Sequence record: ON286973
Source of the DNA: Escherichia phage A51.2
Strand: one strand, 5' to 3'
Length of the DNA stretch: 64,000 nucleotides
Position numbers and translations under genes: made by a program. This document shows positions 3,814 to 57,675 of the stretch, piece after piece (the stretch's first letter is position 1; every line of letters starts with the position of its first letter). The notes under the pieces were generated by a model. The model was given only the letters and a program-made list of their open reading frames with translations. It was not told where the DNA came from and did not search any database.

Positions 3814-4234
3814 TGCAAAAGCTTTTGGTGAGACAGCGGTACAAAGGGGGCAGGCGATGGGACTGGCACTACCTTTCGTATTAAAAGAGCACTTTACAGA
3901 TTTTCAACTTATCAAGGGTGATAAGGGAATGCTTATCCTGGAGCATAAGTTGAGTAAGAAACGCTATAAAGTTGTTTTTAATTCTAAAGCTCCAACAAAA
4001 CTGGGATTCAGAACTTACAATCTTAACCCATCCTACACTAAGGGTGTTGGAAGGGTAGAACAACAGCATTTCAGTGCCAGAGCTTCTTTAGCCCCTTTGA
4101 TGCTAAATTTCTCAGGGGTGGCTTTAGGATACCTTGATAAGAAAAGAGTTCTTCATGTCCGTTTCACAGACTTTGTAACGCTTCTAGCCAACAACGAGGT
4201 TGATGAAAAGGGACGTGTAAAAACAAACTTCTAA
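3776..4234 (+). CDS. hypothetical protein
   Basis: 152-aa ORF, ATG after GGAGAC. Confidence 0.4.
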   Translation: MIKSIDLTKELTDAKAFGETAVQRGQAMGLALPFVLKEHFTDFQLIKGDKGMLILEHKLSKKRYKVVFNSKAPTKLGFRTYNLNPSYTKGVGRVEQQHFSARASLAPLMLNFSGVALGYLDKKRVLHVRFTDFVTLLANNEVDEKGRVKTNF

Positions 4235-9952: not shown

Positions 9953-9959
9953 TTTTAAA

Positions 9960-9978
9960 GGGGCTTCGGCCCCATTTT
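9960..9978 (+). terminator. hairpin GGGGC-TTCG-GCCCC plus T tract between nrdA and nrdB (terminator/attenuator)
   Basis: Perfect stem with TTCG loop followed by ATTTT, 8 nt after nrdA stop. Confidence 0.5.
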
Positions 9979-9990
9979 AGAGGTAGAATA

Positions 9991-11361: not shown

Positions 11362-13496
11362 AAGTTGTAAAACGGGACGGTAGAGAAGAGTTCTATAACG
11401 GAATTAAGGTGATCAAGGCGGCAGAGTCCGCCTTACTTGAGTCTGGACATACTGAAGAAGAAGCTTACCGGATCGCCTGCGCGGTTAATGAAGTTGTTGC
11501 TAACAATCTACCAACCGACCAGTGCACGATCTCTGTAAAAAATATCCATATCCTTGTTGAAGATGCTCTTATGGATATGGGTTTAAAATGTGCAGCCAGA
11601 GAATACATCCAGTATAGACAGACAAGAGATAATAACAGAGAGGCAGGTGGAAAACTGCTTGCAGATATTAGTGGCTTCTTGGATCGAACTTGTGATGAAT
11701 TTACAAAAGAAAACGCAAATAAGCCTACTAATCATGTACACACTCATCGCGACCTGCTTGCAGGTATTCTTAGCAAACACCTTGCATCAACACAGATCCT
11801 GCCAGACCGTGTCTCCGAAGAGCACAATAAAGGATTCATCCATGTGCATGATCTTGACTACTTGATCAGTCCGTTAACAAACTGTTGTTTGGTAAATTAT
11901 CCAGATATGTTGGAAAACGGATTCAACATTGGTAACGCCCATGTCAGTAAGCCGAAGTCAATAGGGGTTGCAACAACAATCCTTAGCCAAATCTCTAGTG
12001 CGGTAGCTAGTGCTCAATATGGTGGTCAGACTATGAGCCATATTGATCATTATCTGGCACAGTATGCTGAAGCAACCTATGAGAAGAACCTTAAATTTTG
12101 CCAGGAACATTGGTTGCCGGATGCTGAAACTGTTGCAATGCAAATGACAGATAAAGACGTATTTGACAGCATGCAGACTTTGCTCTATCAAATCAACACG
12201 TTAACTTCTGTCAACGGGCAAACTCCATTCATCACATTGAGTTTAGGACTGGATACCTCGGTCTTTGGTAGAATGATTACCAAAAACTACCTGAAAGTCC
12301 ACAAAATGGGTCTTGGTGAAGAACGTATCACACCTGTGTTCCCTAAAGTGCTGTTCTTCCTGGAAGAGGGTGTCAACATGAACCCTGGGGATCCTAACTA
12401 TGATTTGAAACGATTAGCTCTGGAATGCTGTGCAGAACGTATCTATCCTGACTTCGTATCTGTACCACTAAATAGAAAAGTGACAGGCTCGACAGATGGC
12501 AAAGTAACTAGCATGGGTTGCAGGAGTTTTCTTAGCAAATACAATGACTTGGAAACAGGCGAGGAGAAATACCTTGGCAGATTTAACTTAGGCGTTGTTA
12601 GCCTTAACCTGCCAATGATTGCGGCAAAAGCTAAGACGGAAGGTGTTGATTTCTTTGCAGTTCTTGACGAATACTTGGATCTTGCATACGAGGCTCACCT
12701 TGTAAGGGTTAACCGTCTAAAAGGAACAAAGGCAGGGCAGAACCCCATCATGTGGTGTGAAGGCGCTCTTGCTCGCCTGGATCCTGAAGAAAGTATTGAT
12801 AAACTCTTCTATGACGGGTACGCTTCCATCAGCATTGGGTACATTGGTGTGTATGAAACCTGTCAGATTTTGGGCAGAGAAGGTGACAAGGCTTTAGCTC
12901 TTGGAATCCTTCAGCACATGAGAGATGCTTGTGAGCGATACAAGAAGGAAAGTAGACTAGCATTTAGCTTGTACGGCACTCCTTCTGAGAGTCTATGCTA
13001 TAAAGCTGCAACCTGTCTGGATCGTGAATATCCAGAAGTGTTAAAGCACGAGCATGAATATCTCACCAACAGTTTCCATCAGCCAGTATGGATCAATAGC
13101 TCTCCTTTTGATAAGTGGGAGTATGAGGAAGGTTTTGCTATGATCTCCTCCGGTGGCAACATCGGATACGTAGAGACACCTAACCTGAAAAACAACCTTG
13201 ATGCTTTAGAGGCTCTTGTTGACTTCGGGTATAAACACATTATGTATTTTGGTATTAACCAACCTGTGGATAAATGTCTCAAGTGTGGTTTCTCTGGTGA
13301 GTTCAGTGCAACAGCTAAAGGGTTCTGCTGCCCTGCGTGCGGATGCCACGATGAACAATATATCTCAGTGATCCGAAGAGTGTCTGGCTATCTCTCCAGC
13401 CCGAACAGTAGGCCGTATAACACAGGTAAACAAGCAGAGGTTATCGAACGTGTTAAACATGTTGGGAATGTAGACTGTTGTCCGTTGAGTAAATAA
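11358..13496 (+). CDS. nrdD: anaerobic ribonucleotide reductase (class III)
   Basis: N-terminal ATP-cone, 712 aa, C-terminal glycyl-radical motif RRVSGYL plus Cys cluster; GTG start. Confidence 0.9.
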   Translation: MKVVKRDGREEFYNGIKVIKAAESALLESGHTEEEAYRIACAVNEVVANNLPTDQCTISVKNIHILVEDALMDMGLKCAAREYIQYRQTRDNNREAGGKLLADISGFLDRTCDEFTKENANKPTNHVHTHRDLLAGILSKHLASTQILPDRVSEEHNKGFIHVHDLDYLISPLTNCCLVNYPDMLENGFNIGNAHVSKPKSIGVATTILSQISSAVASAQYGGQTMSHIDHYLAQYAEATYEKNLKFCQEHWLPDAETVAMQMTDKDVFDSMQTLLYQINTLTSVNGQTPFITLSLGLDTSVFGRMITKNYLKVHKMGLGEERITPVFPKVLFFLEEGVNMNPGDPNYDLKRLALECCAERIYPDFVSVPLNRKVTGSTDGKVTSMGCRSFLSKYNDLETGEEKYLGRFNLGVVSLNLPMIAAKAKTEGVDFFAVLDEYLDLAYEAHLVRVNRLKGTKAGQNPIMWCEGALARLDPEESIDKLFYDGYASISIGYIGVYETCQILGREGDKALALGILQHMRDACERYKKESRLAFSLYGTPSESLCYKAATCLDREYPEVLKHEHEYLTNSFHQPVWINSSPFDKWEYEEGFAMISSGGNIGYVETPNLKNNLDALEALVDFGYKHIMYFGINQPVDKCLKCGFSGEFSATAKGFCCPACGCHDEQYISVIRRVSGYLSSPNSRPYNTGKQAEVIERVKHVGNVDCCPLSK

Positions 13497-13506
13497 GGAA
13501 AGAGGT

Positions 13507-13537
13507 GGAGAGCAAGGATGCTCTCATTTTTTTTTTT
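13507..13537 (+). terminator. intrinsic terminator (GGAGAGCA-AGGA-TGCTCTC plus T11)
   Basis: Stem-loop followed by 11 T residues right after nrdD. Confidence 0.7.
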
Positions 13538-13544
13538 GTTTTTA

Positions 13545-13573
13545 TTGACTTCTATTCCTCTTTTCTATAGTAT
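13545..13573 (+). promoter_or_regulatory. sigma70-like promoter (TTGACT-17-TAGTAT)
   Basis: Hexamers with 17-bp spacer, 39 nt upstream of 13612 ATG. Confidence 0.5.
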
Positions 13574-13611
13574 GCAATATAAAGTGAATAGCGGAAGGGT
13601 CTGGTCTGGTA

Positions 13612-14544
13612 ATGAGAAGACTAACAACCGAAGAGTTTATAGAAAAAGCTCAGACTATACATGGTGACAAATATGATTACTTCAAAGTGGAGTATAAAAA
13701 CAACAAGACACCTGTGTGTATAATTTGTCCTGAGCACGGTGAGTTCTGGCAAACCCCTGTGGCACATGCTTTCAAGAATCATGGTTGTCCAAGGTGTGGT
13801 GGGTCAGCGAAAAAGAACACTGAAGAGTTCATAAAAGAGGCTATGGCTGTTCATGGGGACAAGTACGATTACTCATTAGTCAAATATGCGAACATGAGAA
13901 CGCCTGTAAAAATTGTTTGCCCTGAACACGGTGTGTTTGAACAATACCCTGAAAACCACTTATACCAAAGAAACGGCTGCCCAGAGTGCTATGACTTAAG
14001 ACGTGGGCAAAGTCAAGCGTTAACCCATAAGGAGCACGCTGCAATTATCCACAAAGCCAACCCAGACATAGAAATATTAGAGAAAATTGCCAATGATAAC
14101 ACAAAAGTGCAATGTAGGTGCAAAATTTGTGGGTATAAGTGGTCTGCTAAACCTAATAACCTAAAAAGTGGTCGTGGCTGCTGTAAATGCGCACAAAATG
14201 GATTCTTATCTCATGAGTACGGTAAACTCTACATTATGGTTGATGACTTAGAAGTGCCAACACTTATGAAAATCGGTGTATGCGTTAAAATGCACAGGAG
14301 GAAAAATGAGGTGCTTAACAGTGCTCGTAAATCTGGCGCAGGTGTCCACACTCTTCACGTAGTAAAAACATGGAGCGGATCAACTCAAAACATGGTAGAT
14401 TTAGAAAAATCTGTGCATAAGGCCTTGAGCAAGTATAAAATAAACTTTCCTGTAAAATTTGACGGTAGCACTGAGTTTTTCTACTACAGGCCTGAAGTGT
14501 TTGACACGGTAGAAGAGGTATACAAGAAGATTTGTGGTAAATGA
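13612..14544 (+). CDS. homing-endonuclease-like protein: three zinc-ribbon repeats plus C-terminal T5orf172/GIY-YIG-like domain
   Basis: Repeats HGDKYDY...CPEHG...GCP.C x3; C-terminal LYIM...KIG...TEFF pattern; sits between nrdD and nrdG with its own promoter. Confidence 0.5.
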   Translation: MRRLTTEEFIEKAQTIHGDKYDYFKVEYKNNKTPVCIICPEHGEFWQTPVAHAFKNHGCPRCGGSAKKNTEEFIKEAMAVHGDKYDYSLVKYANMRTPVKIVCPEHGVFEQYPENHLYQRNGCPECYDLRRGQSQALTHKEHAAIIHKANPDIEILEKIANDNTKVQCRCKICGYKWSAKPNNLKSGRGCCKCAQNGFLSHEYGKLYIMVDDLEVPTLMKIGVCVKMHRRKNEVLNSARKSGAGVHTLHVVKTWSGSTQNMVDLEKSVHKALSKYKINFPVKFDGSTEFFYYRPEVFDTVEEVYKKICGK

Positions 14545-14864: not shown

Positions 14865-15101
14865 ATGATAGGTGTCTGTGTAAAAGCTAACAGATGGTTT
14901 ACATTCGGTAAGGATTACGAAATTATCTTTCATTCGGACAGAGCCACAACAGTAGAAAGCGATGATGGGTGCCACTGGTTCGTTAGTTACCATGGTGATG
15001 GGTATTATAGATCTACTGATTCCAGAGGGGAAGAAGCTGTTTTCTTGGATAGAGCTTATTGTGGGCCTGAATATCCTTACCTAAAAGAGGATAAGGAATG
15101 A
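14865..15101 (+). CDS. hypothetical protein
   Basis: 78-aa ORF, RBS AGAGAGG; stop overlaps nrdG start. Confidence 0.4.
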   Translation: MIGVCVKANRWFTFGKDYEIIFHSDRATTVESDDGCHWFVSYHGDGYYRSTDSRGEEAVFLDRAYCGPEYPYLKEDKE

Positions 15102-20018: not shown

Positions 20019-20252
20019 ATGAAAGTTAAATTTCTTACAGATTTAGGGTACCCTTCCTTGGTTGACTGTGTTGGTAAAATTGTGGAAGCAAAACGGCTAT
20101 CTGCAAACGAGAATGTTGTCCTGGTTAAAGGGAAGGATTTACTAGCTGCAGGTGCAGAGTCTGGCAGGATCTCTCCTGATTATATGTATTACCTATCTTT
20201 AAGTAATCTGCCAGAGCGAGGCGGTAAAGGCCTTGAAGTTGTGGAGGAGTGA
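20019..20252 (+). CDS. small acidic protein, VEVVEE-tail family member A
   Basis: RBS AGGAGG; MKVKFL...KGKDLLAAGA...LEVVEE. Confidence 0.5.
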   Translation: MKVKFLTDLGYPSLVDCVGKIVEAKRLSANENVVLVKGKDLLAAGAESGRISPDYMYYLSLSNLPERGGKGLEVVEE

Positions 20253-21974: not shown

Positions 21975-22322
21975 ATGCCAAAGATTAAAACGTTATTACT
22001 GTGGGTAGCTGTTTTAGCTTTTATAGGGTACTGGACTTGGGAAACTGAATTAAAAGATATCGGATATACCAGTCTTGAGAGCAAGGCGTGCATTGGCATA
22101 ACCGATGCGTTCAGGCAAAATGCTATGGATCACGAATGTGTTGATGCAGATATAGATGAGAAACTGTCTAAGGACAAAGATTTTTACCATGGGCATGCTT
22201 TACTTGATAGTGGTGACACTGTAGAGTTCTGGTCGTGGTTTCGTGAAGATGGAACAATAAAAACAGCAGTAAAGATCTCTAACAAAGAGTTAATGCTGTT
22301 GCAGCAAAAGGAGGCTCAATGA
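21975..22322 (+). CDS. hypothetical protein with N-terminal TM/signal-like segment
   Basis: RBS AAGAGG; LLLWVAVLAFIGYW near N-terminus. Confidence 0.45.
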   Translation: MPKIKTLLLWVAVLAFIGYWTWETELKDIGYTSLESKACIGITDAFRQNAMDHECVDADIDEKLSKDKDFYHGHALLDSGDTVEFWSWFREDGTIKTAVKISNKELMLLQQKEAQ

Positions 22323-22606
22323 TCTGGATATCCTATGCTGATGGCACCATGCTGTATACTGCAGGTACCAGATATGAAGTTCAGGAGAACGATAAAAAAT
22401 TTATCGTAAAAACATTTGACAAGGACGACAACCTTTTGCTAGAATTGACTTACAAAGTTGGAGAGGTATCCAATATCCAGTTGGATTGTGGTCATAAAGA
22501 TAATCCACTCAAAAAACCTGGAGTAGGTAAGGCTTCAGAAGAACGTCTGTCTCGTATTGCAGAAAGCGTTTCTCCCCAAAAATCTAAGAAGAGGACTAGA
22601 AAATGA
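22319..22606 (+). CDS. hypothetical protein
   Basis: RBS AAAGGAGG, overlapping start/stop. Confidence 0.4.
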   Translation: MIWISYADGTMLYTAGTRYEVQENDKKFIVKTFDKDDNLLLELTYKVGEVSNIQLDCGHKDNPLKKPGVGKASEERLSRIAESVSPQKSKKRTRK

Positions 22607-23395: not shown

Positions 23396-23677
23396 ATGAA
23401 AAAGATTAACAGTAGTGAAGTAGAGTTTAAACTTGTCGGAAAAGGCACTTACTGGGAAGTTCGTCAAAAGGTATATTTGTTCGGTCTTATTCCCTACTGG
23501 TCTAAATTCTACTGGGGAGCTAACGAGTTGGGAAGATACGCCACCAAATCAATGGCACTTATTGGTATAGCAGAGTACATTGCAGCCCGAGACAGGGTTG
23601 GAACCACTTATTACTACACTGCTGACGATATTCGTAACAGTGTTTACGTCCCACAACCACCTGATGGAGACCGTTGA
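23396..23677 (+). CDS. hypothetical protein
   Basis: ATG 23396 after AGAGGGAG. Confidence 0.4.
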   Translation: MKKINSSEVEFKLVGKGTYWEVRQKVYLFGLIPYWSKFYWGANELGRYATKSMALIGIAEYIAARDRVGTTYYYTADDIRNSVYVPQPPDGDR

Positions 23678-23901
23678 TGAAAGTTAAAGTTTTAGATTCA
23701 AGCTTCTATATTGGTCAGGAGCCTTTAGTAGGAAAAGTGTTTACTGCTGTCCCTAACGAAGATTACCCTGACCTTTTAAAAATAAAAGGAGCAGATCTTA
23801 TTGCCGCTGGTGCATCTCAGGAATGCTTTGACAGTCAGTGGACCTATAACTTTGCCCTAGGTGAGGATGTAGAGGTAGTGGAGGACGATCATGAAGGTTA
23901 A
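23677..23901 (+). CDS. small acidic protein, VEVVEE-tail family member B
   Basis: MKVKVLDS...KGADLIAAGA...DVEVVEDD. Confidence 0.5.
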   Translation: MKVKVLDSSFYIGQEPLVGKVFTAVPNEDYPDLLKIKGADLIAAGASQECFDSQWTYNFALGEDVEVVEDDHEG

Positions 23902-24145
23902 AATTCTTGATTCTAACGTCTACTTGGGACAATCCTTCCTGAATGGAAAGGTCGTTCCTGCGGTATACTTTGAAGGGTTGCCGTGGGATGATCCTGTGCG
24001 GCAACATCACAGTTATGTAGGCCACAACGTGGTGTTTATCTTGGGATCAGACCTGATCACCGCTGGTGCACCTGAATATTATTTCGGGGAAGAGTCCTAC
24101 TATGCCTTTGGGGTAGGGTCAGATGCAGATATTGTAGAGCTGTGA
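23891..24145 (+). CDS. small acidic protein, VEVVEE-tail family member C
   Basis: MKVKILDS...GSDLITAGA...DADIVEL; similar to B. Confidence 0.5.
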   Translation: MKVKILDSNVYLGQSFLNGKVVPAVYFEGLPWDDPVRQHHSYVGHNVVFILGSDLITAGAPEYYFGEESYYAFGVGSDADIVEL

Positions 24146-24157: not shown

Positions 24158-24556
24158 GTGAAAAATAAACTGTTTAAAGTTACAATGAAAATTCGCGGGG
24201 CTTGGAGCGTAAAGCAAGGGCGTATTCCAGAATTTGAGAAAGACTTCTACGTAGTCTCCACCTCGGAGGAGGCTGCATGCTGGCAGGCTGGCTATGCCTA
24301 TGCAAGAACCTGGTACGAAGGATACCAGACTGGGGGCTATGACGGAGAAATTATCAGCAAGGGTGTAGAAGAAATTAATGTGTTGACAAGTGAAAAAGTT
24401 TTTGTTATAGTGCATCCAGATTCCAGAGTGAAGCATTACTGGAATGCCAGAACAAAAACTTGGACACCGTTTGCAGATTCTGCTACGCCACTTTTAAACC
24501 AGAAAGCTCTTGACTCTGCCCCAAGTTATGGGGTTGTTGAAGAAAAGCTAAACTGA
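24158..24556 (+). CDS. hypothetical protein, paralogue of 26368..26763
   Basis: Shares HP[DH]S..YW..K.WTP motif with the 26368 gene; GTG start. Confidence 0.45.
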   Translation: MKNKLFKVTMKIRGAWSVKQGRIPEFEKDFYVVSTSEEAACWQAGYAYARTWYEGYQTGGYDGEIISKGVEEINVLTSEKVFVIVHPDSRVKHYWNARTKTWTPFADSATPLLNQKALDSAPSYGVVEEKLN

Positions 24557-25767: not shown

Positions 25768-26031
25768 ATGATTGTTTATTTTAAAACTTCAGGTGGATAC
25801 CCTGATTCTCAAAGCTTGATCGGAAAAACGTGCACAGCATACTCACCTCTTGATGAGGAGGTAAGCGATATTTTACGAAATATGTATCGGATTGACCCCC
25901 AAGAAGCCTTTGATCAAAACCTTGTATTTGTCAAGGGCTCAGATATGAAGTCTTTGGGAGCATTCCCTGAAGCAGATGATGATGCCGTTTATTCGTTCAT
26001 GACTCCTTTTGAAGCTATGGTTGTTGGGTGA
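25768..26031 (+). CDS. small acidic protein, VEVVEE-tail family member E
   Basis: RBS AGAGGTG; KGSDMKSLGA core; C-terminus FEAMVVG. Confidence 0.5.
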   Translation: MIVYFKTSGGYPDSQSLIGKTCTAYSPLDEEVSDILRNMYRIDPQEAFDQNLVFVKGSDMKSLGAFPEADDDAVYSFMTPFEAMVVG

Positions 26032-26035
26032 TAAT

Positions 26036-26368
26036 ATGAAAGTACGCTTTATTGGTGAAACAATTCCTGTGCATCTCCGGTCGCCTGAGGATTCTGCAGA
26101 TCTTGCATCTCAAAAGGCGAGAGGTTATGATAAGAAAGTAACCTCAACCGATGTAGTGCTTGAGGCTACTAGTCTACCTGACCCTGCTGCATTCTTTAAT
26201 CATTATGGGTACTATTTCAGCAATCTGATGAATATCGGTGAGCTTGTGTTTATTAGTGGTGGAGAAATTGTTAGCAAGCTTGGCGGCGATCCGGATGTCT
26301 TTCATGAAACCTGTCCTTTTGCATTTGTGGTGGGTTCAGATGTGGAAGTTATTGAGGAGGTGCGGTAA
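26036..26368 (+). CDS. small acidic protein, VEVVEE-tail family member F
   Basis: MKVRFIGE...C-terminus SDVEVIEEVR; ATG 26036. Confidence 0.5.
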   Translation: MKVRFIGETIPVHLRSPEDSADLASQKARGYDKKVTSTDVVLEATSLPDPAAFFNHYGYYFSNLMNIGELVFISGGEIVSKLGGDPDVFHETCPFAFVVGSDVEVIEEVR

Positions 26369-26763
26369 TGGTAAGCCTATACCGTGTTGAGTATAGCTCA
26401 GATACTGTATACAACGTAAGAAGCAAAGATCGCAGCGACAGAGTGCAAGAAATGTATGTTCTTGCCGACAGTCCGTTATCTGCAGCGTTCAAGGCAGGGG
26501 CTCTTGCATCTCGTTGGAAATTTGAAGGCGGATCTTTCTATGAAGAAACCCTTGAAGATTCTGTTGTTATTTCTTCTGTAGAGGTTTCAGATGACTACGA
26601 AGGGAAAAAGTTCGTAATGCGGCACCCACACAGCAACATTGCGTACTACTGGGATGTTCTGAACAACGAGTGGACCCCAGATCTTCAGAAGGCTACTGTG
26701 CTAACACCGTTTTTGGCAGATAAGTTCCCACCAGAAGGTAATTTATCCGCACTGTTTCAGTAA
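26368..26763 (+). CDS. hypothetical protein, paralogue of 24158..24556
   Basis: RBS GGAGGTG; shares HPHS..YW..WTP motif. Confidence 0.5.
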   Translation: MVSLYRVEYSSDTVYNVRSKDRSDRVQEMYVLADSPLSAAFKAGALASRWKFEGGSFYEETLEDSVVISSVEVSDDYEGKKFVMRHPHSNIAYYWDVLNNEWTPDLQKATVLTPFLADKFPPEGNLSALFQ

Positions 26764-28420: not shown

Positions 28421-28575
28421 CAGTATAGTGACTAACAAGAGGTGAGGAGTGACTGATTTTACTGAAGCTTTAATGATGGCCTTGTCTGTTTTAGCGCTAT
28501 CGGTGTGTTTTGGGGCGTTATTCACATCTCTGGTTAAAGTTTTACATACAGTATTATTACCCAAGGAGCGCAGTA

Positions 28576-28827
28576 ATGACGAAGATTGACTTGAATGCTG
28601 GTGATCATGTTGTTGTCAAATGCATTGGAGATTATCTTGGATTCACAATCGGCAATACTTACGAGGCGGTAGTGGCGAAGGTTTATCATGATAAAGTCCT
28701 CAGTCTTGTATTTGACTGCGATGATGATGGGGATGACCGATACGTCTGTGAGGTGCTGGCACGAGACGATAGTGAAGACCAGAAATTCCTGGTTATTGAA
28801 CTGAACGGTATTTTTGTAGAACGTTAA
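28576..28827 (+). CDS. hypothetical acidic protein
   Basis: RBS AAGGAG; ATG 28576. Confidence 0.45.
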   Translation: MTKIDLNAGDHVVVKCIGDYLGFTIGNTYEAVVAKVYHDKVLSLVFDCDDDGDDRYVCEVLARDDSEDQKFLVIELNGIFVER

Positions 28828-43449: not shown

Positions 43450-43647
43450 TTATTTTTTATTAAACCAGTGGTTGATCTGACCTTTTGTCAGGGCGCAACG
43501 ATTAAGCTGTTGCAGGGTATAGCTATGACCGCGACGAAATTTATAAAGGCCTTGCCCGTTGTTGATGGTTACATCCACCCGGCAAATCACTTGATTGGTG
43601 ACCACCTGGCGAGTGTTGCGACGTACTTTGATCCCGTATGCGTTCAT
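43450..43647 (-). CDS. hypothetical basic protein
   Basis: ATG 43647 after AAGAGGA; ORF-track start 43725 probably an extension. Confidence 0.4.
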   Translation of the reverse strand: MNAYGIKVRRNTRQVVTNQVICRVDVTINNGQGLYKFRRGHSYTLQQLNRCALTKGQINHWFNKK

Positions 43648-43943
43648 AAATTTATCCTCTTTACTGGTTAGTGCGGTGTTGTTCACCTTGTAGGGTAATA
43701 ATACCATGATTAACCTTGTTGTCAACGACTATTTTAAATTATTTTTATGATAGAATCCACCTGCCGCCGCCCTGCCAGGTTAACCATCATTTTTTCGTAC
43801 TCTTCTTTATGTTCCAACGCTCCCGCCATGGCCTTTTCAACCAGGGCGATAGCCTCAGCGTCATTAATAGCTACATTTTCCAGGCTGGCCCCGCCAGGTT
43901 GCAGCGGTTAGCGCATCAGGTTAGAAAAATTTTTTGAAAAGTG

Positions 43944-48343: not shown

Positions 48344-49570
48344 TTAAAAAGGGATGTCATCATCAAAGGTATACTGTGCTGGATTCTGATCCATTGGGTC
48401 ATCTTCCTCATCATTTACAGGAGGAGCGTCTACAGTGTTTTGCTGTGGAGCTGCTTCCTGTTTGGCAGCCTGGGGTTCTTGATAGTCAGTTGACCCAGCA
48501 CCGTTCTTGATCCAATCGTACAACGGTTCAGCCAGATTAGTCAAGACATCTTTTGCTTCTGCAGTAATTGCCGCTGCAAAATCATCAACTTTCGTTTTCT
48601 TGTCAATACGGCGACAAGCGTTCAACACCGCATTACCGACACTGGCACCTACTTCATCTTCAGTTCGGTTGGTGGCTTGAGCATACTCTTTCTTAAGCTC
48701 AATGGTGACTACGTGCAGTGTTTTAGCCACGCCCAGTGGGTCGTCTACCTTAAACCCGCGATCCAGGATGATCTGCAACGCATTGATGCTATGCCCCGTT
48801 TCCACACCGATAGGGTCGTAAGAGGATTTACGCTTGCCACCGGAGCCTTGAGTGCCGTTCTCTGCCTTAGGGGGATAGGCTTTGAAACCGCTGATAATGT
48901 TTCCGGTGTCTTTGTCAACAATGGCTGCAACACGACCACCTACCACCAGGTCTTTAAGCTGCTCATCAGTTACAACCATAGCACCTTCGCCAATCTTGTG
49001 GTCATTAACAGTAACCACGTTGCCAACAATCTGAGTCACATCGCCATAGATGCGTAAAACGTCCTGATTGGCATTCTGCTGAGGTTTCTGCTTCTGGCCT
49101 TGTGATTGTGCACCTTGTTGCTGTTTTTGCTGCTGAGTCGCTGCTGGAGCCTCTCCTGCACCCAGCTTGACCATCTTAGCCAGTGAGCCTTTGTAATAGG
49201 TCTTACCGTTATGCTCGTTTGCCTTCAAAGGGATATTTACGATCCATCCCGGCGTTACGGTTTCCCACTTGTCATCAATTTTAACAGAGACAGAGTCTTG
49301 ATGACCAGGTTTAAGCAGCTTATCACCCATGCTGATCCAAACTTCTTCACCACCTTGAAGCAGGTTATCAGAGGAATCCAGTTCAGAAATCAGTAAAGAG
49401 ATGGTGTGGCTGGATTCAATTTTCTTACCTTGCCACACAGTGGTTTTAATACCTGTTGTAGGATCAGCACCTTTGATAGGCTTGATGCTGACACGTTTAA
49501 TCATGCCGTGAGCCAGTAAAACAGTTTCACGCGGATTCATCGGGTTAGCGAATTGTTGAATAACGCTCAT
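48344..49570 (-). CDS. putative ssDNA-binding-type replication protein with host-SSB-like C-terminal tail
   Basis: 408 aa; Gln-rich linker; C-terminus ends DDDIPF (E. coli SSB ends DFDDDIPF); N-terminal fold not recognised. Confidence 0.55.
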   Translation of the reverse strand: MSVIQQFANPMNPRETVLLAHGMIKRVSIKPIKGADPTTGIKTTVWQGKKIESSHTISLLISELDSSDNLLQGGEEVWISMGDKLLKPGHQDSVSVKIDDKWETVTPGWIVNIPLKANEHNGKTYYKGSLAKMVKLGAGEAPAATQQQKQQQGAQSQGQKQKPQQNANQDVLRIYGDVTQIVGNVVTVNDHKIGEGAMVVTDEQLKDLVVGGRVAAIVDKDTGNIISGFKAYPPKAENGTQGSGGKRKSSYDPIGVETGHSINALQIILDRGFKVDDPLGVAKTLHVVTIELKKEYAQATNRTEDEVGASVGNAVLNACRRIDKKTKVDDFAAAITAEAKDVLTNLAEPLYDWIKNGAGSTDYQEPQAAKQEAAPQQNTVDAPPVNDEEDDPMDQNPAQYTFDDDIPF

Positions 49571-49935: not shown

Positions 49936-50018
49936 TATGGAATCTCCGATTTTATTTGAACAACATAGAAGGAGACACTATTTTAGCATCCCCTTCTGCA
50001 AATTACAATAGGTATTTG

Positions 50019-50264
50019 TTAGCCAATCACTTCGAAAGTTCCCCAATTCCCGTCCAGCAGGCAGGTGATCGGATCCCCATCGTCGTCAAAGATTTCAAAG
50101 TTTTCAGCATCCAGGATGTGGCCCTCAAACACAATACTTTCGTCGCCACCACCAGAAATAACAGCGTATTCCTTACCTTGAGTCAAGTTTTGACACCCTT
50201 TGCCACCAAAACCTACTTCAACACAACGTACTTTCTGTCCTGCGCGAGCAACTACTTCAGTCAT
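50019..50264 (-). CDS. hypothetical protein
   Basis: 81-aa ORF. Confidence 0.4.
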   Translation of the reverse strand: MTEVVARAGQKVRCVEVGFGGKGCQNLTQGKEYAVISGGGDESIVFEGHILDAENFEIFDDDGDPITCLLDGNWGTFEVIG

Positions 50265-50281: not shown

Positions 50282-50602
50282 TTAATCGTCAAGTTCAAAA
50301 TAGATTTTAACAGCTTCATCAAAGATTGGAATCCCGATGTTGTTAATAAGCTGCCAAACTACCATATCTTTACCTGGGTCGGGGAGAATGTCAACCTTTC
50401 TCCATGCGCTGTATATCCAGTTCGGACCACCTTCTGCACTAACTGGCAGATTTTCACCAGCCTCCTGCAGATACTTATACAGCAAAAGATATTCTGGATA
50501 CTCTAGAACACTGTCCTCTGTAGTATATAGCAGTTCACGGTATACTTTTAAGAACCCTGCGGGGGTGATGTTTTCAGTCTTCATTTGCTGCTTCTCCTGC
50601 AT
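50282..50602 (-). CDS. hypothetical protein
   Basis: 106-aa ORF, start uncertain. Confidence 0.4.
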   Translation of the reverse strand: MQEKQQMKTENITPAGFLKVYRELLYTTEDSVLEYPEYLLLYKYLQEAGENLPVSAEGGPNWIYSAWRKVDILPDPGKDMVVWQLINNIGIPIFDEAVKIYFELDD

Positions 50603-50966
50603 TCATCAGATCTGCCATAGCGTCACCCACGAAGAGAACAACCACATCGTTGACAGCGTCAGCATCATCTTTGTTGACGTTGCTGAATTTAGGACACACA
50701 GCAATGATCATATAGACACCGTTACCAACTTGAACTGTCCGTGTGGTGCACATCATGGCGGTATTTGTGCCTTCTTTGAAGGCGAAGCCTTGAAGACGCT
50801 CCTCTAAAGTGTTACCGGTAGATTTCAGAAGCGCCAGCTCGTCCAAGGCATAGATGATATCTCCGGAAGTTAGTGTTGCCTTGCCATCAGACACCATAAT
50901 CACTCCATCAGCACCATCAAGCTTAGAGGCTTCAAAGATATCGATATCCCAAATATTTTTCATCAC
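50574..50966 (-). CDS. hypothetical acidic protein
   Basis: 130-aa ORF. Confidence 0.4.
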   Translation of the reverse strand: MMKNIWDIDIFEASKLDGADGVIMVSDGKATLTSGDIIYALDELALLKSTGNTLEERLQGFAFKEGTNTAMMCTTRTVQVGNGVYMIIAVCPKFSNVNKDDADAVNDVVVLFVGDAMADLMNAGEAANED

Positions 50967-51235
50967 GCTTCCTCATCATCTAAGTAATCATCAAGAGAGG
51001 TGAAGATTTCACCGAAGTATTCTAAGATTTCTAGCTCACGTGTGGTGCAGCAAACATAATCGCCTTGGTCGTCCTTAATAGTGGCCTCTTTACCCAGAAT
51101 ATCTACTTCAAGTTCATCGTTCAACAGGACGGCCCCTGTGTAAACTTTGTCAGCTGTGCAGTCCCGAAAAGCAGAGTCCTTCTCCAGATAGTCTGGCTTA
51201 ACCTTGGCTTTAATTCGTTGATATTGTTTGGTCAT
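50963..51235 (-). CDS. hypothetical protein, paralogue of 51299..51553
   Basis: ATG 51235 after AAAGGGGA; shares KP.Y.E.D.AF.DCT and KDD.GD...CT motifs. Confidence 0.4.
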   Translation of the reverse strand: MTKQYQRIKAKVKPDYLEKDSAFRDCTADKVYTGAVLLNDELEVDILGKEATIKDDQGDYVCCTTRELEILEYFGEIFTSLDDYLDDEEA

Positions 51236-51298
51236 TGCTGTGGTCCCCTTTCGTTTTGATAGGGCCATTATAGTAGGCCCTATGACTGTTGTCAAGCA

Positions 51299-51553
51299 TT
51301 AATGTTCAGGTTTTACAAAAACTACTTCATTAACAGTGCACCAGACAGAGTCTCCTTCATCATCTTTAAAGGTAAGGCACTGTGCTGAGTTTTCCAACTC
51401 ATCAAGCTCTTCCTGTGATAGAGGAGCTCCTTCTTCCAGAAGGGCTTTTACCAAAGGGTTCTCACAAAACTCTGCTTCATAAATTGCACCGATTGTGCAA
51501 TCTTTAAAAGCTCGGTCATTTTCAACGCATTCTGGCTTCAGAGTAATTTTCAT
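51299..51553 (-). CDS. hypothetical protein, paralogue of 50963..51235
   Basis: 84-aa ORF, RBS AAGGAGA. Confidence 0.45.
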   Translation of the reverse strand: MKITLKPECVENDRAFKDCTIGAIYEAEFCENPLVKALLEEGAPLSQEELDELENSAQCLTFKDDEGDSVWCTVNEVVFVKPEH

Positions 51554-51629
51554 CTTAGCGGTCTCCTTAAGTGTTAAACAATCAACGCTCTGTTTGTGTG
51601 AAGCATCTTATATCTAATCTTACTTCCTG

Positions 51630-52028
51630 TCAACGACTATTTTCGATCATCCACCAAGGATCAAGATAAGTTTGTTGACTTTTTGCCCACTGACAAACTT
51701 CATTGTACATCTGAACCTCGTTGTCCGTCAATTCACGAATAGGTTCATCTATACCCTCATTTTTATGGTAATCCCATTCTGCGTCTATCTCCCACAGCCA
51801 TGACTTGTTGTCACCACGCTTACGCACACAAAAATCACCAGGGCGGCCTGCCAGTGCATTTAAGAACTCGTTCTCCGCTCGCTCCTGGAGAATACTAAGG
51901 AGCAAAACGTTGGAGCATGACCGTAAAATATGCTTCAGCTCACAATCATCAATCTCAACTTCAATACGTTGTTTGACTGTGTGGGTACCTTTTACTAACA
52001 TCCTGCCTCCTCTAAACGAACTCTGCAA
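51630..52028 (-). CDS. hypothetical protein
   Basis: 132-aa ORF. Confidence 0.45.
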   Translation of the reverse strand: MQSSFRGGRMLVKGTHTVKQRIEVEIDDCELKHILRSCSNVLLLSILQERAENEFLNALAGRPGDFCVRKRGDNKSWLWEIDAEWDYHKNEGIDEPIRELTDNEVQMYNEVCQWAKSQQTYLDPWWMIENSR

Positions 52029-52206
52029 GAGTTGTGTTGTTCACTGCACCGCAGTAAATGGAGTATCCCAGCCCATTAGAGTGCAGAAACCACGGCGTGC
52101 CGAAATTATCTTTCACGTAGACATCACCGTTGTTTGTAAAGGGCCAATATTCTTCACCAAGGGTAAAATACCTATTCATACCTTCAGCAAGATACTTTAC
52201 TTTCAT
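52012..52206 (-). CDS. hypothetical protein, three-member paralogue family
   Basis: Shares (F/Y)F..G..Y......KD..G..W(Y/F)...... pattern with next two genes. Confidence 0.4.
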   Translation of the reverse strand: MKVKYLAEGMNRYFTLGEEYWPFTNNGDVYVKDNFGTPWFLHSNGLGYSIYCGAVNNTTLAEFV

Positions 52207-52430
52207 AGGTCCTCTTCAACAACTACAAACTTGGCAAGCAAAGTGGTTCCGTAGATATGATACTCACCGTTTGCCAGGTGAGAGATATACCAGGCAACCC
52301 CTTCCTCGTCTTTAATCATTTTGTTTGCACGAGCTTTATCGTAATAAACCTCGTAGGTCTTTCCTTCTTTAAAGAATGACAGGTCTGTCATCTTTTCTTC
52401 TACAAAGGTAGCTTTAACCAAAGTCGTCAT
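52203..52430 (-). CDS. hypothetical protein, three-member paralogue family
   Basis: FFKEGKTYEV...IKDEEGVAWYI. Confidence 0.4.
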   Translation of the reverse strand: MTTLVKATFVEEKMTDLSFFKEGKTYEVYYDKARANKMIKDEEGVAWYISHLANGEYHIYGTTLLAKFVVVEEDL

Positions 52431-52711
52431 TGATCGGTCTCCTTCTTGTTAAGTCTGAATACTGCAATAATAGCATTCCCAAGGTGCAGTGTCAAGTCAT
52501 TTCCAAGATACCACAGCATCCCACGGTCATCTTTAATGAAAGGGTAACAATCTGGTGCCTTCCAGACATTGTACACTTTCCCAACCTGAAAGAAATCAGG
52601 CCCTGTTGGGATTTTGGTGCCAGGCCACACTTGAGATACCTGAACACACTCCACCTGCATAATAACAGGAATGGTCATGGATGTAAATGTTTTTGTTGGC
52701 TCTACTACCAT
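52427..52711 (-). CDS. hypothetical protein, three-member paralogue family
   Basis: ATG 52711 after AAGAGGAG; FFQVGKVYNV...IKDDRGMLWYL. Confidence 0.45.
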   Translation of the reverse strand: MVVEPTKTFTSMTIPVIMQVECVQVSQVWPGTKIPTGPDFFQVGKVYNVWKAPDCYPFIKDDRGMLWYLGNDLTLHLGNAIIAVFRLNKKETDQ

Positions 52712-52760: not shown

Positions 52761-55538
52761 TTAGTGACAATCACCCCAGTTACGACCGCACAAGTATTCA
52801 CCTGTGATCTGGAATGGAACGCCCATCATTTTAGAAGCTTGCCAGAAGCAATGCACCACCATTTCACCCACAGGGCTCCAGATAAGTTCAAGCTTTCCGT
52901 CATCGTTCAGGATAGGATCGTACACCGTGTTTCCGTCTCTGTCAACCACTTCGTTTCCGTTTTCATCCTTGCGTGCCTTTTTGTACTTATGACCGTCGAA
53001 CACATGAAGTTTGGCTTCCTGCTCTGCCTTAAATGCTTCCAATTCTTCAATTGTGTCGAAGGTGTACACAGTCTTATACTTAGGTGTGTCAGGGACCTGA
53101 AGTTGGTACTCATCATGGTAATAAATAATACGACGGACACCTTCATCGTACCACCCACGCTTCACCATTTGGTGGTGCATGAGTATCCCAACTAAGTCAC
53201 ACAGCGATGCACCACCATTTTGTTGGTATGCATTAAGTAAAGAGTGTTTAGATCGGGTCCAGATAGCATGACCATCAAAAGAGTAGATAAACTTCTTACC
53301 TGTTGCTTCCCAGAATTTCTCCAGATCCTCTTTGCGCCCCTTAAGACCGGGGTTGGCATCCCAAAGTGCATCGATCACCCTTTGCCCCAACTCTGGGGAG
53401 ATATCCAGCATATCTGCGACTTTATCTTTTTGTGCCCCGTACATAACCCCATACGTGATAGGTTTACCGTCGTTACGAGACACCTCTCTGCCTGCTACTT
53501 TTGTATATGCCTCAGCATTGTTTTGGTGTGCGTCTCCGTTACTTACAACATCATAGTACAAGCCGTTGTCGAACTCAAAGGCACCCCAAGCCCCGATAAG
53601 CTGCTCTAAGTTGGACCCGTCAATACCGATCTCAAAATATCCAGGAGGAACACCCCACAAGCTACGCATCTCTTTACCCATAACCACTTTAGGAGATGGT
53701 TTAGGCATGTTTGCACAAATACTGTGTTTCTGTCGGGAAGTGTTTGTTAATCCAGAGCTTTTAGCAGGAAGCTTATGGTCAATCTTCAAACGTGGGTGAT
53801 TAAGAAGACCAGTATCAACCTTATCCTCCTTGATTGGATCAAGGACCGATCTGCGGTTTCGCAATGATAACCACAAGACGATATCTTTAGCCATCTCTCC
53901 GTTCAATTTTTCAAGATTCGGACATAGGTGTCCAAACGTATCTTTCAGTTGCGGAGAAGTAATAAGTGCCCTGGCTTTTCTGCGTATTTTCCCGAACACT
54001 TCCTTTTTAATCCTTTCGGAGTTAGGAAAGCTTCGGAACTTGTGCACTGTTGTCTGAAACTTAGCATCAGTTTTGTTCCAGAAGTTGATAATTAGGTCAC
54101 AATACTCTGACTCTAAAAGCTCGTCCATGTATGCATATACTCGTGCATCAACATCTGCATCAGGTAGAGCTTTCTTCTTGCTGTCCTTAGTTACATCCTT
54201 AGTTCTCCACATTGTCGGAAGCCAACCAGCACTGATCAGGTATCGCTTAATGTCGTCCTGATTGCTGATTTTCATAGGTATCTTGCAGTCAGGCATTCGC
54301 TTCTGCTGCAGATCACTTATTGCCTGATCCATCAGCTCTTTAGGTAAAGGTTGTGGTGTGGAGGTGCCCTTAATATAACCTCTCAAGAAATCAGCCATCT
54401 TGTCGGGGTCTTTGCAGCCCATCTCTTCGCACCATTTTATCCCCATCTTGCTGACATCTCCTGTGGAGGTAAATGCTCGCTTAGGCGGGGCTTTGAATTC
54501 TAAGGCGCTCATGTCTACAGGATAGCCAAGCTTATCTTTTAACCATTTCCAACCATTATTGGAGATTGTCCCATCTTGGTTAAACGGCTTTTCAGGGAAC
54601 TTGGGCCGCTGAGACATTGACAACTCTTTTAAAGGAAGTTGAGGTTCAACACGATCAGCGATCTCTTTCATCCACGCATCGCAACGGTCACGTAAAGCAA
54701 TAGCCCCATCTATGTCGAAATACACACCCTGACGGGCCTGCAGCTCCATCAGGAAGTGCTGCAGCATGCCTCGGCGTAATGCGTTCTTCCAGGTGATTTT
54801 CTTGAACCCTTTCGGCTTCTCTTTGGCTGGATCGTACATAAAGTTCTGCATGTCAGATTTGCCGTAGAATACACCTTTTGATTCCGCTATCAGCTCTTTC
54901 CAGAGCAGCTCCTGGATGATAACGTCCTCGAATACACGATCCACATACTTCCACAACGGAAGATCGCGCCAGTCATCAATTTGAACTTTCTGGTTACCAA
55001 GGGCGTAGCCCCATGCCATAAGGCCGTGAGGACCAACAGGCTGCATTTTCTTAGTAACCGGGTTGAATACAGAGTCCGGACAACCTTTTGGTAAAGGGCG
55101 ATCAGGCCACAAGATTCTGCTCATCGCCAACGTATCAAACAGGTTAACCTGGTGGTCGTTGATAGTCCCCATGCATTTAGGATCACGGAACATATCAAAA
55201 TGAATACCGGATAATCTTTCCATCAGCATAAAGTCATAACTGTAGCAGTTATGGCAGTTCAAAGCTGTTGGTGACCAGTCGGAATTGCCTGTAAGCCAAC
55301 CTTCCAACTCCGAAAAATCTGCTATGCGAACTTCAAAATCTTTATGAAGAGTTTTCTTTGCCAGAATAAAGTTCTTAGCCTTCTCTATATCCTCTTCGGA
55401 GTAGTGTGTGCGGTCATTTAGAGGAAGGAACAGCATAAAACGGTTCTTATTCAGCTCTTTAAACAGGCCGCAGTGATAATAAAGATCTGGATCTTCCAGC
55501 AAACCGGATGACTCAAAGTCGAACGACCACATGCTCAT
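52761..55538 (-). CDS. DNA polymerase, family A, with 3'-5' exonuclease domain
   Basis: 925 aa; exo motif FDFESSG; Pol motif A-like DGSNLEQLIGAW, motif B-like KPITYGVMYGAQ, motif C YYHDEYQ. Confidence 0.85.
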   Translation of the reverse strand: MSMWSFDFESSGLLEDPDLYYHCGLFKELNKNRFMLFLPLNDRTHYSEEDIEKAKNFILAKKTLHKDFEVRIADFSELEGWLTGNSDWSPTALNCHNCYSYDFMLMERLSGIHFDMFRDPKCMGTINDHQVNLFDTLAMSRILWPDRPLPKGCPDSVFNPVTKKMQPVGPHGLMAWGYALGNQKVQIDDWRDLPLWKYVDRVFEDVIIQELLWKELIAESKGVFYGKSDMQNFMYDPAKEKPKGFKKITWKNALRRGMLQHFLMELQARQGVYFDIDGAIALRDRCDAWMKEIADRVEPQLPLKELSMSQRPKFPEKPFNQDGTISNNGWKWLKDKLGYPVDMSALEFKAPPKRAFTSTGDVSKMGIKWCEEMGCKDPDKMADFLRGYIKGTSTPQPLPKELMDQAISDLQQKRMPDCKIPMKISNQDDIKRYLISAGWLPTMWRTKDVTKDSKKKALPDADVDARVYAYMDELLESEYCDLIINFWNKTDAKFQTTVHKFRSFPNSERIKKEVFGKIRRKARALITSPQLKDTFGHLCPNLEKLNGEMAKDIVLWLSLRNRRSVLDPIKEDKVDTGLLNHPRLKIDHKLPAKSSGLTNTSRQKHSICANMPKPSPKVVMGKEMRSLWGVPPGYFEIGIDGSNLEQLIGAWGAFEFDNGLYYDVVSNGDAHQNNAEAYTKVAGREVSRNDGKPITYGVMYGAQKDKVADMLDISPELGQRVIDALWDANPGLKGRKEDLEKFWEATGKKFIYSFDGHAIWTRSKHSLLNAYQQNGGASLCDLVGILMHHQMVKRGWYDEGVRRIIYYHDEYQLQVPDTPKYKTVYTFDTIEELEAFKAEQEAKLHVFDGHKYKKARKDENGNEVVDRDGNTVYDPILNDDGKLELIWSPVGEMVVHCFWQASKMMGVPFQITGEYLCGRNWGDCH

Positions 55539-55596: not shown

Positions 55597-57675
55597 TTAA
55601 AAAGGTGTTTCATCATCCTCAAAACCAGGGACCGGATCAGAGGATGGATCATCGTATTGGAGGTCTTCCTGCGTGTCAATAGGCTTGACAGTGGGTGTTA
55701 CAACCTTATCAGCCACAACCTTGCCCATAGGTGTTTCTACAACTGCATGCTCTTGATCCTCAAACATAGCCTGAGGTCTCCAAACAACCTCCCCACCTTC
55801 TCCGTCTGTAAACATCTGCATTTCTTTGTCCCAGTACCAATTACTGGCATCATGGAACTTACCTGTATGCGGATCCATAACTAAAGTGTCAGCAATACCT
55901 AAAGTTTTTGCTGGACGGTTTTTAAGACCTACCAGACGGACACGTCCACGAGAACGATCCACCATTTCTTCGGCCTCGACACCTATGACTACCCAACTCA
56001 ACTGTTCAAGCCCAGCCGATCCTCGCAAATTCTCTTTTCGCACAGGATACCAGAAAGGTAATGGGTTACCATCCTTGTCCTTAGGGGGCACAATCTCTGT
56101 ACGTTTGAGGTGAGCGATCACCAAGATAAACACGTTAAACTGCTTACAAAACGCAGCCAGTTGGGTCATAGCCATGTCCAGTTCTTTTCGCTCATCCTTA
56201 ACATTAAGCCCTGAAATTACCATGGACAGGTGATCCAGCACAATATAACGGCAATGGTACAGGCAAACCATTTGCTTAAGCTTGGTAATCAACTCGTCCA
56301 CCGGAATAGATCCGAAATGTTTGAACACTTTGATTTTTCCAGCTTTTGCCCATGATTGGTGGATCTCTGCGTGTTCTTGATCAGTTAAAAACTGGCTAGG
56401 ATCTTCAACAAACTCTTTAACATCAAACCCTAACTGGTTTGCATACAAGGAGTTAATTGCTTCCTCTGGGTCCTCCTCAAGATGGATCATACATAGACGA
56501 TCATCCTCTTCATAGTCATCAGCCTTCGGGCATGTCGGGTCCATTAGGTATCTTGCAATACAATGTTCCAGTTTTTTAGCTACAGTTGTTTTACCGCCCC
56601 CTGATGGCCCTGTAAGCATTACGAGTGTCCCTTTGTGCAAGCCTTTTAGCATTTTTTGCAGTTTTGGGAACTCTGCGCTGATATCTACCCCGTTGGAAGT
56701 CTTTTTCCGCAAAGACTCGATAGAGAAGTCTTCTAAATCCGACACAGCATCAGGCACATATTTAACAGGGTGCCGGAACATGTTGACAATATCTTCCAGC
56801 TTTTTAGCCTTCAGCATGTCACGGATATCTTTTACCCCGTCAGGGTCATTTACTTCACCAGGGTATTCTACGTGGTAAACGTTATCAGCCATCAAAAATG
56901 CTGCGATATTGTGCGTGGCCTCAACACCTTTAATGACGTGTTTTTGCTTCTCTACCTCGTTAGCTGCATCGTTATCCATTGCCAGCACAACTGTTCCATA
57001 GCTACGGATAAACTTCTCATTGTTTGCAAAAGTATCTACTGCGTTTGCACATCCACAGTTAATTCCAACAAAAGGCAGGCAGGGTTTTCCTGCCAGATCA
57101 CCACCGTTGATAACTGCGTCGATCCCGTCCTGGACCTCTTTAGCCCACTGCTTCACCTTTGCCGGGGCTTTAGCGTTGGTGAGAATCCCTTTTACTTGTA
57201 TCTGATATGCAGCCTGCCATGCTGCAATAACATCACCTTCTCCCTCACAAACGTTAATCTGCTTACGGTTGTTGGAAGATGCACACAGCTTTTGACCAAA
57301 CATCTGGGAGTTGGCCTTTACGATGCCAACAACGGAGAAGTGGCCCCTTTGTTCTTTAGGAATAGTCCAGTCACGCTTTTTGAAACCGGACAGATTTCCG
57401 TAGCGGTCGTAATATGGGAAATATGTTGCAGTGACTGTCACACCGTCTTCTTGTGACAATGCTGATCGCACACCAAAATATTGTGCAGCCATCAGACCGA
57501 TATTTTGTTGTGGGACAGGGACAATTTTAGTATTTTCTAAAACAGTCTCTACAGTTTCAACTTCTTTTTCATCACGATAGTCTCGTTTCACACTTCCCCC
57601 ACTTTTATACTTAGTTGCTTTCGGGTTTGGCTCACCGAAACGGTTGTATGCAGATGCCATAAATTTACTTCCCAT
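55597..57675 (-). CDS. bifunctional primase-helicase (T7 gp4-like: TOPRIM plus DnaB-type helicase)
   Basis: TOPRIM-like EGEGD and DNDAANE; Walker A LTGPSGGGKTT; Walker B IVLDHL. Confidence 0.8.
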   Translation of the reverse strand: MGSKFMASAYNRFGEPNPKATKYKSGGSVKRDYRDEKEVETVETVLENTKIVPVPQQNIGLMAAQYFGVRSALSQEDGVTVTATYFPYYDRYGNLSGFKKRDWTIPKEQRGHFSVVGIVKANSQMFGQKLCASSNNRKQINVCEGEGDVIAAWQAAYQIQVKGILTNAKAPAKVKQWAKEVQDGIDAVINGGDLAGKPCLPFVGINCGCANAVDTFANNEKFIRSYGTVVLAMDNDAANEVEKQKHVIKGVEATHNIAAFLMADNVYHVEYPGEVNDPDGVKDIRDMLKAKKLEDIVNMFRHPVKYVPDAVSDLEDFSIESLRKKTSNGVDISAEFPKLQKMLKGLHKGTLVMLTGPSGGGKTTVAKKLEHCIARYLMDPTCPKADDYEEDDRLCMIHLEEDPEEAINSLYANQLGFDVKEFVEDPSQFLTDQEHAEIHQSWAKAGKIKVFKHFGSIPVDELITKLKQMVCLYHCRYIVLDHLSMVISGLNVKDERKELDMAMTQLAAFCKQFNVFILVIAHLKRTEIVPPKDKDGNPLPFWYPVRKENLRGSAGLEQLSWVVIGVEAEEMVDRSRGRVRLVGLKNRPAKTLGIADTLVMDPHTGKFHDASNWYWDKEMQMFTDGEGGEVVWRPQAMFEDQEHAVVETPMGKVVADKVVTPTVKPIDTQEDLQYDDPSSDPVPGFEDDETPF

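Follow-up and report, generated by a model that had tools for sequence, protein, structure and literature searches.

Tandem small genes beside the DNA polymerase gene of an rV5-like coliphage: diverged copies of a probable SH3-like barrel module

The DNA considered here (hereafter the window) is a stretch of 64,000 nucleotides from Escherichia phage A51.2 (sequence record ON286973). Next to its DNA polymerase gene (52761-55538, minus strand) lie two sets of small genes, here called A and B, which the original prediction listed as two families of tandem paralogues. All five genes are present on the minus strand, and the polymerase gene heads the order B3, B2, B1, a gene of 123 residues, A2 and A1. 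B3 (52427..52711, 94 residues) is the first gene past the polymerase and corresponds to open reading frame (ORF) 224 of phage rV5 (phrog_12922). It is followed by B2 (52203..52430, 75 residues; rV5 ORF223, phrog_12623), B1 (52012..52206, 64 residues; rV5 ORF222, phrog_12802), A2 (51299..51553, 84 residues; rV5 ORF220, phrog_12544) and A1 (50963..51235, 90 residues; rV5 ORF219, phrog_11936). The rV5 counterparts of the region are ORF216-224, every one of which is labelled "hypothetical protein". Over the 6 kilobases (kb) around the cluster, identity is 99.3% with Escherichia phage MaxBurger (Bas54), and many further rV5-like phages of the genus Vequintavirus match at 97-98%. By sequence, the window is that of a Vequintavirus, an rV5-like coliphage.

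Protein comparisons were made against the 563 six-frame ORFs of the 64 kb, and all 36 pairs of nine neighbouring genes were compared with hhalign profiles of orthologues from seven relatives. A1 and A2 share 35% identity over 77 columns, with a BLASTP E value of 1e-11 as a single pair, 8.7e-9 against all window ORFs and an hhalign P value of 6.4e-9. B2 and B3 are related at 3e-7 in BLASTP and 8.3e-6 in hhalign, and B1 and B2 at 6e-4 and 7.5e-5. The corresponding values for B1 and B3 are 0.014 and 0.003, a pairwise similarity that is not convincing by itself. None of the other 32 hhalign pairings among the nine genes fell below P 0.016. Cross-matches in PHROG link A1 to the A2 family and the reverse, as well as B2 to the B3 family. 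A DNA-level repeat search returned nothing meaningful, so that the duplications are detectable only in protein comparison. The alignments, whose non-significance had been named as the refutation of the paralogy, are thus significant, and A1 and A2 are tandem paralogues as had been proposed. The motif written for them, KP.Y.E, does not hold at the Y position, where A2 has C. Likewise, the pattern given for the B genes has the wrong spacer (11-13 residues rather than 6), while the family relationship stands.

The B relationship extends well beyond these genes. A profile of B1-B3, run over the window with hmmsearch, finds a fourth ORF at E 5.9e-6, a dispersed member called B4 (14865..15101, plus strand, 78 residues; phrog_3249) directly upstream of an nrdG-like gene. 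The profile of B1-B4 was then searched against 1.84 billion representative proteins. Besides orthologues, it finds proteins built of two to six head-to-tail units of about 50 residues (P0048, P0050, P0051, P0053, P0056-58 and P0062). The unit reads kVkC(i/v), 5-9 residues, [FYW][FL]TxGKxYxV, 6-13 residues, [IV]xDDxGxxW[YF], then F, and in B3 it begins at an internal MQVECV. A hidden Markov model (HMM) built only from the metagenomic repeat proteins, which lie outside this genome, matches five window ORFs: B4 at E 8.8e-9, B1 at 3.2e-8, B2 at 4.2e-7, B3 at 1.2e-5 and, at 2.4e-5, an 81-residue gene at 50019..50264 (minus strand; rV5 ORF216, phrog_4927 at 7e-28). The window B proteins are therefore recognised by an external profile as copies of a widespread module of 60-95-residue phage proteins (PHROGs 4927, 3249, 3523, 16833, 10169 and relatives), several of these families also giving cross-matches, and the tandem paralogy of B1, B2 and B3 is carried by this match of each gene together with their pairwise scores. 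Direct hhalign comparison of the 81-residue gene with B1, B2 or B3, made with shallow profiles, was not significant; the gene is counted as a member because of the foreign-repeat match and because its own family, phrog_4927, is also matched by repeats of P0048, P0051 and P0058. A B family of three was therefore a correct relationship with too low a count, the window holding at least five members. Since the remainder of the MaxBurger genome adds a single marginal candidate (bas54_0043, E 0.033), the profiles point to five confident members per genome, all within the window.

Word-index protein searches with B2 and A2 return only relatives at least 70% identical over the aligned part, and the same kind of search with the module alignment adds only four further proteins. 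Among catalogued domains, the nearest are DUF6501 and DUF7244, the latter belonging to the SH3 clan (PMC13164509). The likeness lies in the module's MKVKC...G..Y......I.D..G; the foreign repeat proteins pass the DUF6501 cut-off (P0048 at 73 bits, P0058 at 41 bits) and touch DUF7244. The 81-residue gene, on the other hand, scores 14.5 bits with DUF7244 against a cut-off of 27, and B1-B3 and B4 have no Pfam hit, so the window proteins appear related to DUF6501/DUF7244 only transitively, via the foreign repeats. The module profile also matches bas11_0041, which looks like the Bas11 counterpart of the DUF7244 "SH3" protein. No paper describing these paralogues was found in the literature, and rV5-like phages are not covered by a phage transposon-mutagenesis preprint.

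In seven diverged relatives every one of the nine neighbouring ORFs is intact. The ratio of non-synonymous to synonymous substitution rates (dN/dS) is 0.05-0.20 for A1, A2, B1 and B2 in comparisons with phages at dS 0.2-0.95. For B3 it is about 0: against three diverged relatives, 27-33 differences are synonymous and 0-1 non-synonymous. On these comparisons the A and B genes are real and under purifying selection. The idea that chance or composition produced the similarities, and that not all of these short ORFs are genes, could draw on the shortness of the proteins and on the weak B1/B3 scores (0.014 and 0.003). It is scarcely credible and may be regarded as refuted by the A1/A2 score of 1e-11, by external profiles that match every B copy, by reversed-sequence controls with nothing below 0.05 and by the intactness of every ORF at dN/dS of 0.2 or less.

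The 1.8-kb block downstream of the polymerase occurs in 117 phage records at 88-99.8% identity, and a polymerase at least 90% identical occurs in 118 records. The match of these two counts indicates that the duplications predate the genus. From their sequences they are ancient (at most 35% identity between copies) and fixed across the genus; they did not arise recently in this phage. Presence and absence across related phages, a check that had been suggested, was also followed beyond the genus. In Mydovirus KB57, Seunavirus 4MG, Certrevirus CR8 and ICP1, whose polymerases are 54-59% identical in the three other Vequintavirinae genera and 43% in ICP1, the ORFs flanking the polymerase gene include no A or B homologue. 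B4 has a different distribution. By tblastn it is at least 80% identical in only about 32 Vequintavirus-level records, and copies 52-67% identical occur in T1-like phages, e.g., Rtp and Sd1. Being patchy in the genus and shared with T1-like phages, B4 is an exchangeable accessory gene.

Structure prediction, another of the suggested checks, gives B2 as a six-stranded small barrel. The AlphaFold2 model, made with the 37-sequence module alignment, has a predicted local distance difference test score of 82.5 and a predicted template modelling score of 0.71, and it is all-beta: six strands, the first two of which are joined by a long loop. Canonical five-stranded SH3-like barrels (eukaryotic SH3, FeoA, the C-terminal domain of DtxR/ScaR, KOW) are among the closest known systems. 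The predicted fold is that of Gp54 of Escherichia phage Bas11 (PDB 9AXB), which is described as a rare barrel of six strands with SH3 domains as its closest kin (PMC11578894). As predicted, B2 shares with Gp54 both the six-stranded barrel and the prominent strand 1-2 loop. Gp54 has 66 residues, is non-essential and is of unknown function (PMC11578894). It binds directly to the C-terminal sensor of the toxin-antitoxin defence protein CapRel-SJ46 and thereby activates it, being the second direct trigger of this protein; strands 2-5 and the refolded strand 1-2 loop clamp the sensor (PMC11578894). Close homologues of Gp54 still fail to trigger CapRel-SJ46 (PMC11578894). In comparisons of Gp54 with the B and module profiles, FKKG/FxxG and GLTW/GxxW fall in register and G24, a site of escape mutation, aligns to the invariant glycine of the B motif, in an alignment whose score is not significant. 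Gp54 differs from the module in that it is without the kVkC and DDxG motifs and is single-copy in T1-like phages, as opposed to five copies here. A Foldseek search of predicted viral structures returns many uncharacterised coliphage proteins of 62-80 residues at template modelling scores of 0.6-0.75, including a B4 orthologue.

In view of these data, the A and B genes are read here, with moderate confidence, as ancient and diverged tandem duplicates of a standalone SH3-like barrel that would act as accessory protein-binding modules. This reading is preferred because the products are small standalone SH3-like barrels, and the studied structural relative, Gp54, acts purely by binding. It is also preferred because among 31 B2 orthologues the variation peaks in strands 2-4 (mean entropy 0.41 versus 0.14-0.20 elsewhere), the region that Gp54 uses as its interface, and because the family is patchy, exchangeable and prone to amplification. 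Its accessory character is seen in the four distant relatives without A or B homologues at the polymerase and in the patchy B4 shared with T1-like phages. Each paralogue would be a binding module made alongside the replication genes. Each copy might grip a different host or phage partner by the face from strand 2 to strand 4, as Gp54 clamps the CapRel sensor. Duplication and divergence would in this way have yielded a small repertoire of binding specificities, with host factors or defence proteins as the most plausible targets; CapRel-type defences could, for their part, sense these paralogues.

A different use of such barrels has been proposed for the DUF7244 protein of T1-like phages, namely, as cell-wall-binding or lysis-associated SH3 modules. 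The module borders DUF7244, and the standalone "SH3" protein of that family adjoins the lysis cassette in phages KanT1 and T1. Here, by contrast, the genes lie in a replication/early region with host-type promoters, away from lysis genes, and the MaxBurger endolysin and spanins are tens of kilobases off. A reading of the sequences reveals no apparent signal peptide or membrane segment, and the lysis role is itself a hypothesis for the DUF7244 family (PMC13164509). It is accordingly a highly improbable role for the A and B proteins.

The arrangement of the B genes bears on another explanation. The start codons of B2 and B1 overlap the stop codons of B3 and B2, respectively, in ATGA (4-nucleotide overlaps), and the start of B3 lies 50 nucleotides past the polymerase stop. 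Because of these overlaps and this distance, B3-B2-B1 are probably read with the polymerase message. The main rival to binding of host proteins is that the conserved partner is a component of the replisome: the B proteins, and B3 in particular, would attach to the polymerase, the primase-helicase or an SSB-like protein and tune replication, leaving the host untargeted. Peptides or nucleic acids are common ligands of SH3-like and KOW folds, and the contact could be the acidic C-terminal tail or the Q/P-rich linker of the SSB-like protein. A 408-residue protein encoded downstream of the cluster (48344-49570, minus strand) ends in ...YTFDDDIPF, the tip being as in E. coli SSB, after a Q/P-rich linker, and the primase-helicase (55597-57675, minus strand) ends in ...FEDDETPF. 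Both tails are acidic and finish in PF, and they may represent a shared docking peptide; DDDIPF and DDETPF could serve as ligands. The rival is further favoured by the translational coupling just 50 nucleotides past the polymerase and by the low dN/dS values, above all the extreme constraint on B3. The four distant relatives, however, have homologous polymerases with no A or B homologue beside them, B4 and the 50019-50264 copy do not adjoin replisome genes, and Gp54, the one structural relative to have been characterised, is non-essential (PMC11578894). A replisome role is therefore rather unlikely.

Several observations weigh against the binding-module interpretation. Every copy has a low dN/dS without any signal of positive selection, and the near-invariance of B3 is more readily explained by a conserved housekeeping partner than by an arms race. 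Searching the window proteins against Pfam, NCBIfam and PDB sequences gave no match above threshold. The resemblance to Gp54 is structural and predicted, from one model, and does not amount to established homology: hhalign gave P 0.34-0.38 for Gp54 as a single sequence and 0.034-0.56 once a seven-sequence profile was used. The link is not read as homology because this profile comparison is not significant. The module HMM also gave no hit to bas11_0054. With regard to set A, two of the five structure models of A1 are poor, and the direct A-versus-B profile comparisons among the nine neighbouring genes were not significant. The E values of the A genes are 0.16 and 1.9 with the foreign-repeat HMM, and 0.048 and 0.15 with the module profile. 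The link between A and B, at P 2.4e-4 and an hhalign probability of 43%, is a weak one.

This P value comes from the comparison of the A profile with the 37-sequence module profile, which covers 41 columns in the expected strand register; "KPDYLEKDSAFRDCTADKVY" pairs with kVxC...FTxGKxY, and "ATIKDDQGDYVCC" with IxDDxGxxW. Because of this match, and because both models are small SH3-like barrels, A and B are more likely than not to be two branches of one SH3-like superfamily. The alternative is that they are independent families which share a generic small-barrel shape and a DDxG beta-hairpin, A1 and A2 being an invention specific to the genus. It is a possibility to be kept in mind, if the less probable of the two. 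Against it stand the P value with its register, the presence of both A genes in the top 10 of the 563 ORFs for the module profile, the sharing of phrog_17459, which is touched by A1, A2 and the repeat protein P0048, and the same strand order in the B2 and A1 models. A1 continues past the barrel core with a helix whose end is acidic (...DDYLDDEEA), and A2 has the A1 core with an acidic insert of 16 residues. The separation into two families, as originally drawn, is thus probably replaced by two branches of one superfamily, with moderate support.

Amplification of the module reaches much further in metagenomes. The 40.7-kb scaffold_178 of ENA assembly ERZ28616081, which encodes the six-repeat protein P0048, contains at least 38 module genes in its readable 14 kb. 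They form runs of 17, 7 and 10 genes of about 65 residues each, together with the fused six-repeat gene, in the segments 308-3852, 9409-10821 and 12151-14115, and their stop and start codons mostly overlap or abut. Many copies end in a conserved helix-like C-terminal "LSEIRNETINKLLE" tail. A PHROG scan of the non-module genes of the scaffold gave no match, and neither did tblastn of the array consensus against isolated phages. The metagenomic forms (six repeats in P0048, four in P0058, and the scaffold_178 array) resemble the window genes in carrying the module at significant E values, in head-to-tail copies and in stop/start overlaps. They differ in their far greater copy number, in the fusion of some copies and in the "LSEIRNETINKLLE" tail, which the window genes are without. 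The module is thus encountered as single genes, as fused proteins of two to six repeats and as a hyper-amplified array. Tandem amplification characterises this protein family in phages or mobile elements at large and is not confined to this genome, and the 38-gene array hints at a much larger phenomenon. It is imaginable, if quite improbable, that the Gp54-like/DUF6501-DUF7244 barrel is a hyper-evolvable "binder" scaffold, amplified in tandem, from three copies here to dozens in other elements, into a diverse set of inhibitors or decoys directed at host factors and host defence. If so, CapRel-like sensors would have evolved to recognise the fold for that reason, and B1-B3 and A1-A2 of the rV5-like phages would be a small, tractable example in a phage of the BASEL collection.

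The proteins may be placed, on sequence and on the model, among the small SH3-like or Gp54-like phage proteins, as members not remarked on before. In more than 100 sequenced rV5-like phages, seven genes that carry the label "hypothetical" or, mistakenly, "minor capsid protein" may henceforth be annotated as small barrels of SH3-like type, and five of the seven belong to one widespread family. The Gp54 fold has been called very rare, its homologues having been sought only by BLASTP in BASEL phage genomes (PMC11578894). From the models, this reportedly rare fold is probably common among unrelated coliphages and present there in several copies. If it is, one may ask whether CapRel-type or other sensors recognise a fold class or a single protein, and what use the phage makes of such non-essential proteins. 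Since a public phage collection includes the closest relative, Bas54 (MaxBurger), knock-outs and co-expression assays can be made without difficulty.

As to the start codons, those given originally are the best supported. The ATG of A1 at 51235 is preceded by an AAGGGG ribosome-binding site and by a perfect sigma-70 consensus promoter, TTGACA-17-TATAAT (51267..51295, minus strand). MaxBurger is annotated with a longer A1 start that would land within the -10 box; this start is therefore disfavoured, the promoter lying upstream of the ATG at 51235. The ATG of B3 at 52711 is preceded by a GAGGAG site. The A1 promoter, contained in the 63-nucleotide gap between A2 and A1, is one of three perfect sigma-70 consensus matches in the 64 kb, and its hexamers are kept in seven relatives (TACAAT in two) while the spacer varies. 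Its -10 box is flanked by an 8-9-bp inverted repeat, ATAGGGCC...GGCCCTAT (51257-51283, minus strand), which in rV5 shows the change pair ATAGGACC...GGTCCTAT. Since these changes are compensatory, they suggest a conserved operator or hairpin. A sigma-70-like promoter matching 10 of 12 positions lies upstream of A2 (51605..51633, minus strand), and the annotated rV5 promoter P220 is located between ORF221 and ORF220, the homologues of the 123-residue gene and A2. The stop codon of A1 overlaps the start of the next gene, and the operon headed by A1 passes through two unrelated genes (50574-50963 and 50282-50584, minus strand) to the 81-residue gene, which closes it. A terminator-like hairpin (49967..49997, minus strand) marks the end of this unit; in phage Murica a terminator is annotated at the same position, just downstream of the homologous 81-residue gene.

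Between the two sets lies the 123-residue gene (51630..52001, minus strand; rV5 ORF221, phrog_6273 at 2.2e-51), which was considered as an A or B member and rejected, as it has no significant hhalign match to the neighbouring genes. The PHROG match of B3 to its family is at 1.2e-67, and the B3 orthologue of phage slur12 carries an in-frame internal duplication of 11 residues, KAPDCHPFIKE / KAPNCYPFIKD, in the region from strand 2 to strand 3. Several database variants of A2 (P0035, P0038-P0044) are frameshifted or truncated in or beside the acidic insert, or have the insert deleted; either some phages can do without A2 or assembly errors are common in this stretch. The polymerase gene is intact here, whereas an HNH homing-endonuclease insertion splits it in rV5, FV3, APECc02 and others. 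In many records B4 is labelled "putative minor capsid protein", a label that finds no support here and may have spread from one record to another. Other proteins with the same fold bear labels such as "DNA methylase" or "tailspike sialidase".

A gene at 28510..28827 (plus strand, phrog_12851) bears "VVKCIGDYLGFTIGNTYE" and DDDGDDRYVC in module order and is a candidate member whose profile E of 0.13-0.18 is not significant. It belongs to a group of near-significant ORFs (E 0.02-0.18) with 22319-22606 (plus strand), 43450-43725 (minus strand) and bas54_0043, all four of which may be very diverged members. The wider statement of the original prediction, that local duplication of small genes recurs in this genome, is borne out because all-against-all BLASTP finds other sets of small paralogues in the window. 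One comprises 20019-20252, 23674-23901, 23891-24145 and 26009-26368 (plus strand), and a second plus-strand set pairs 24158-24556 with 26368-26763, at E values from 2e-13 to 8e-3 across both. These sets are probably what had earlier been described as an "acidic-tail family".

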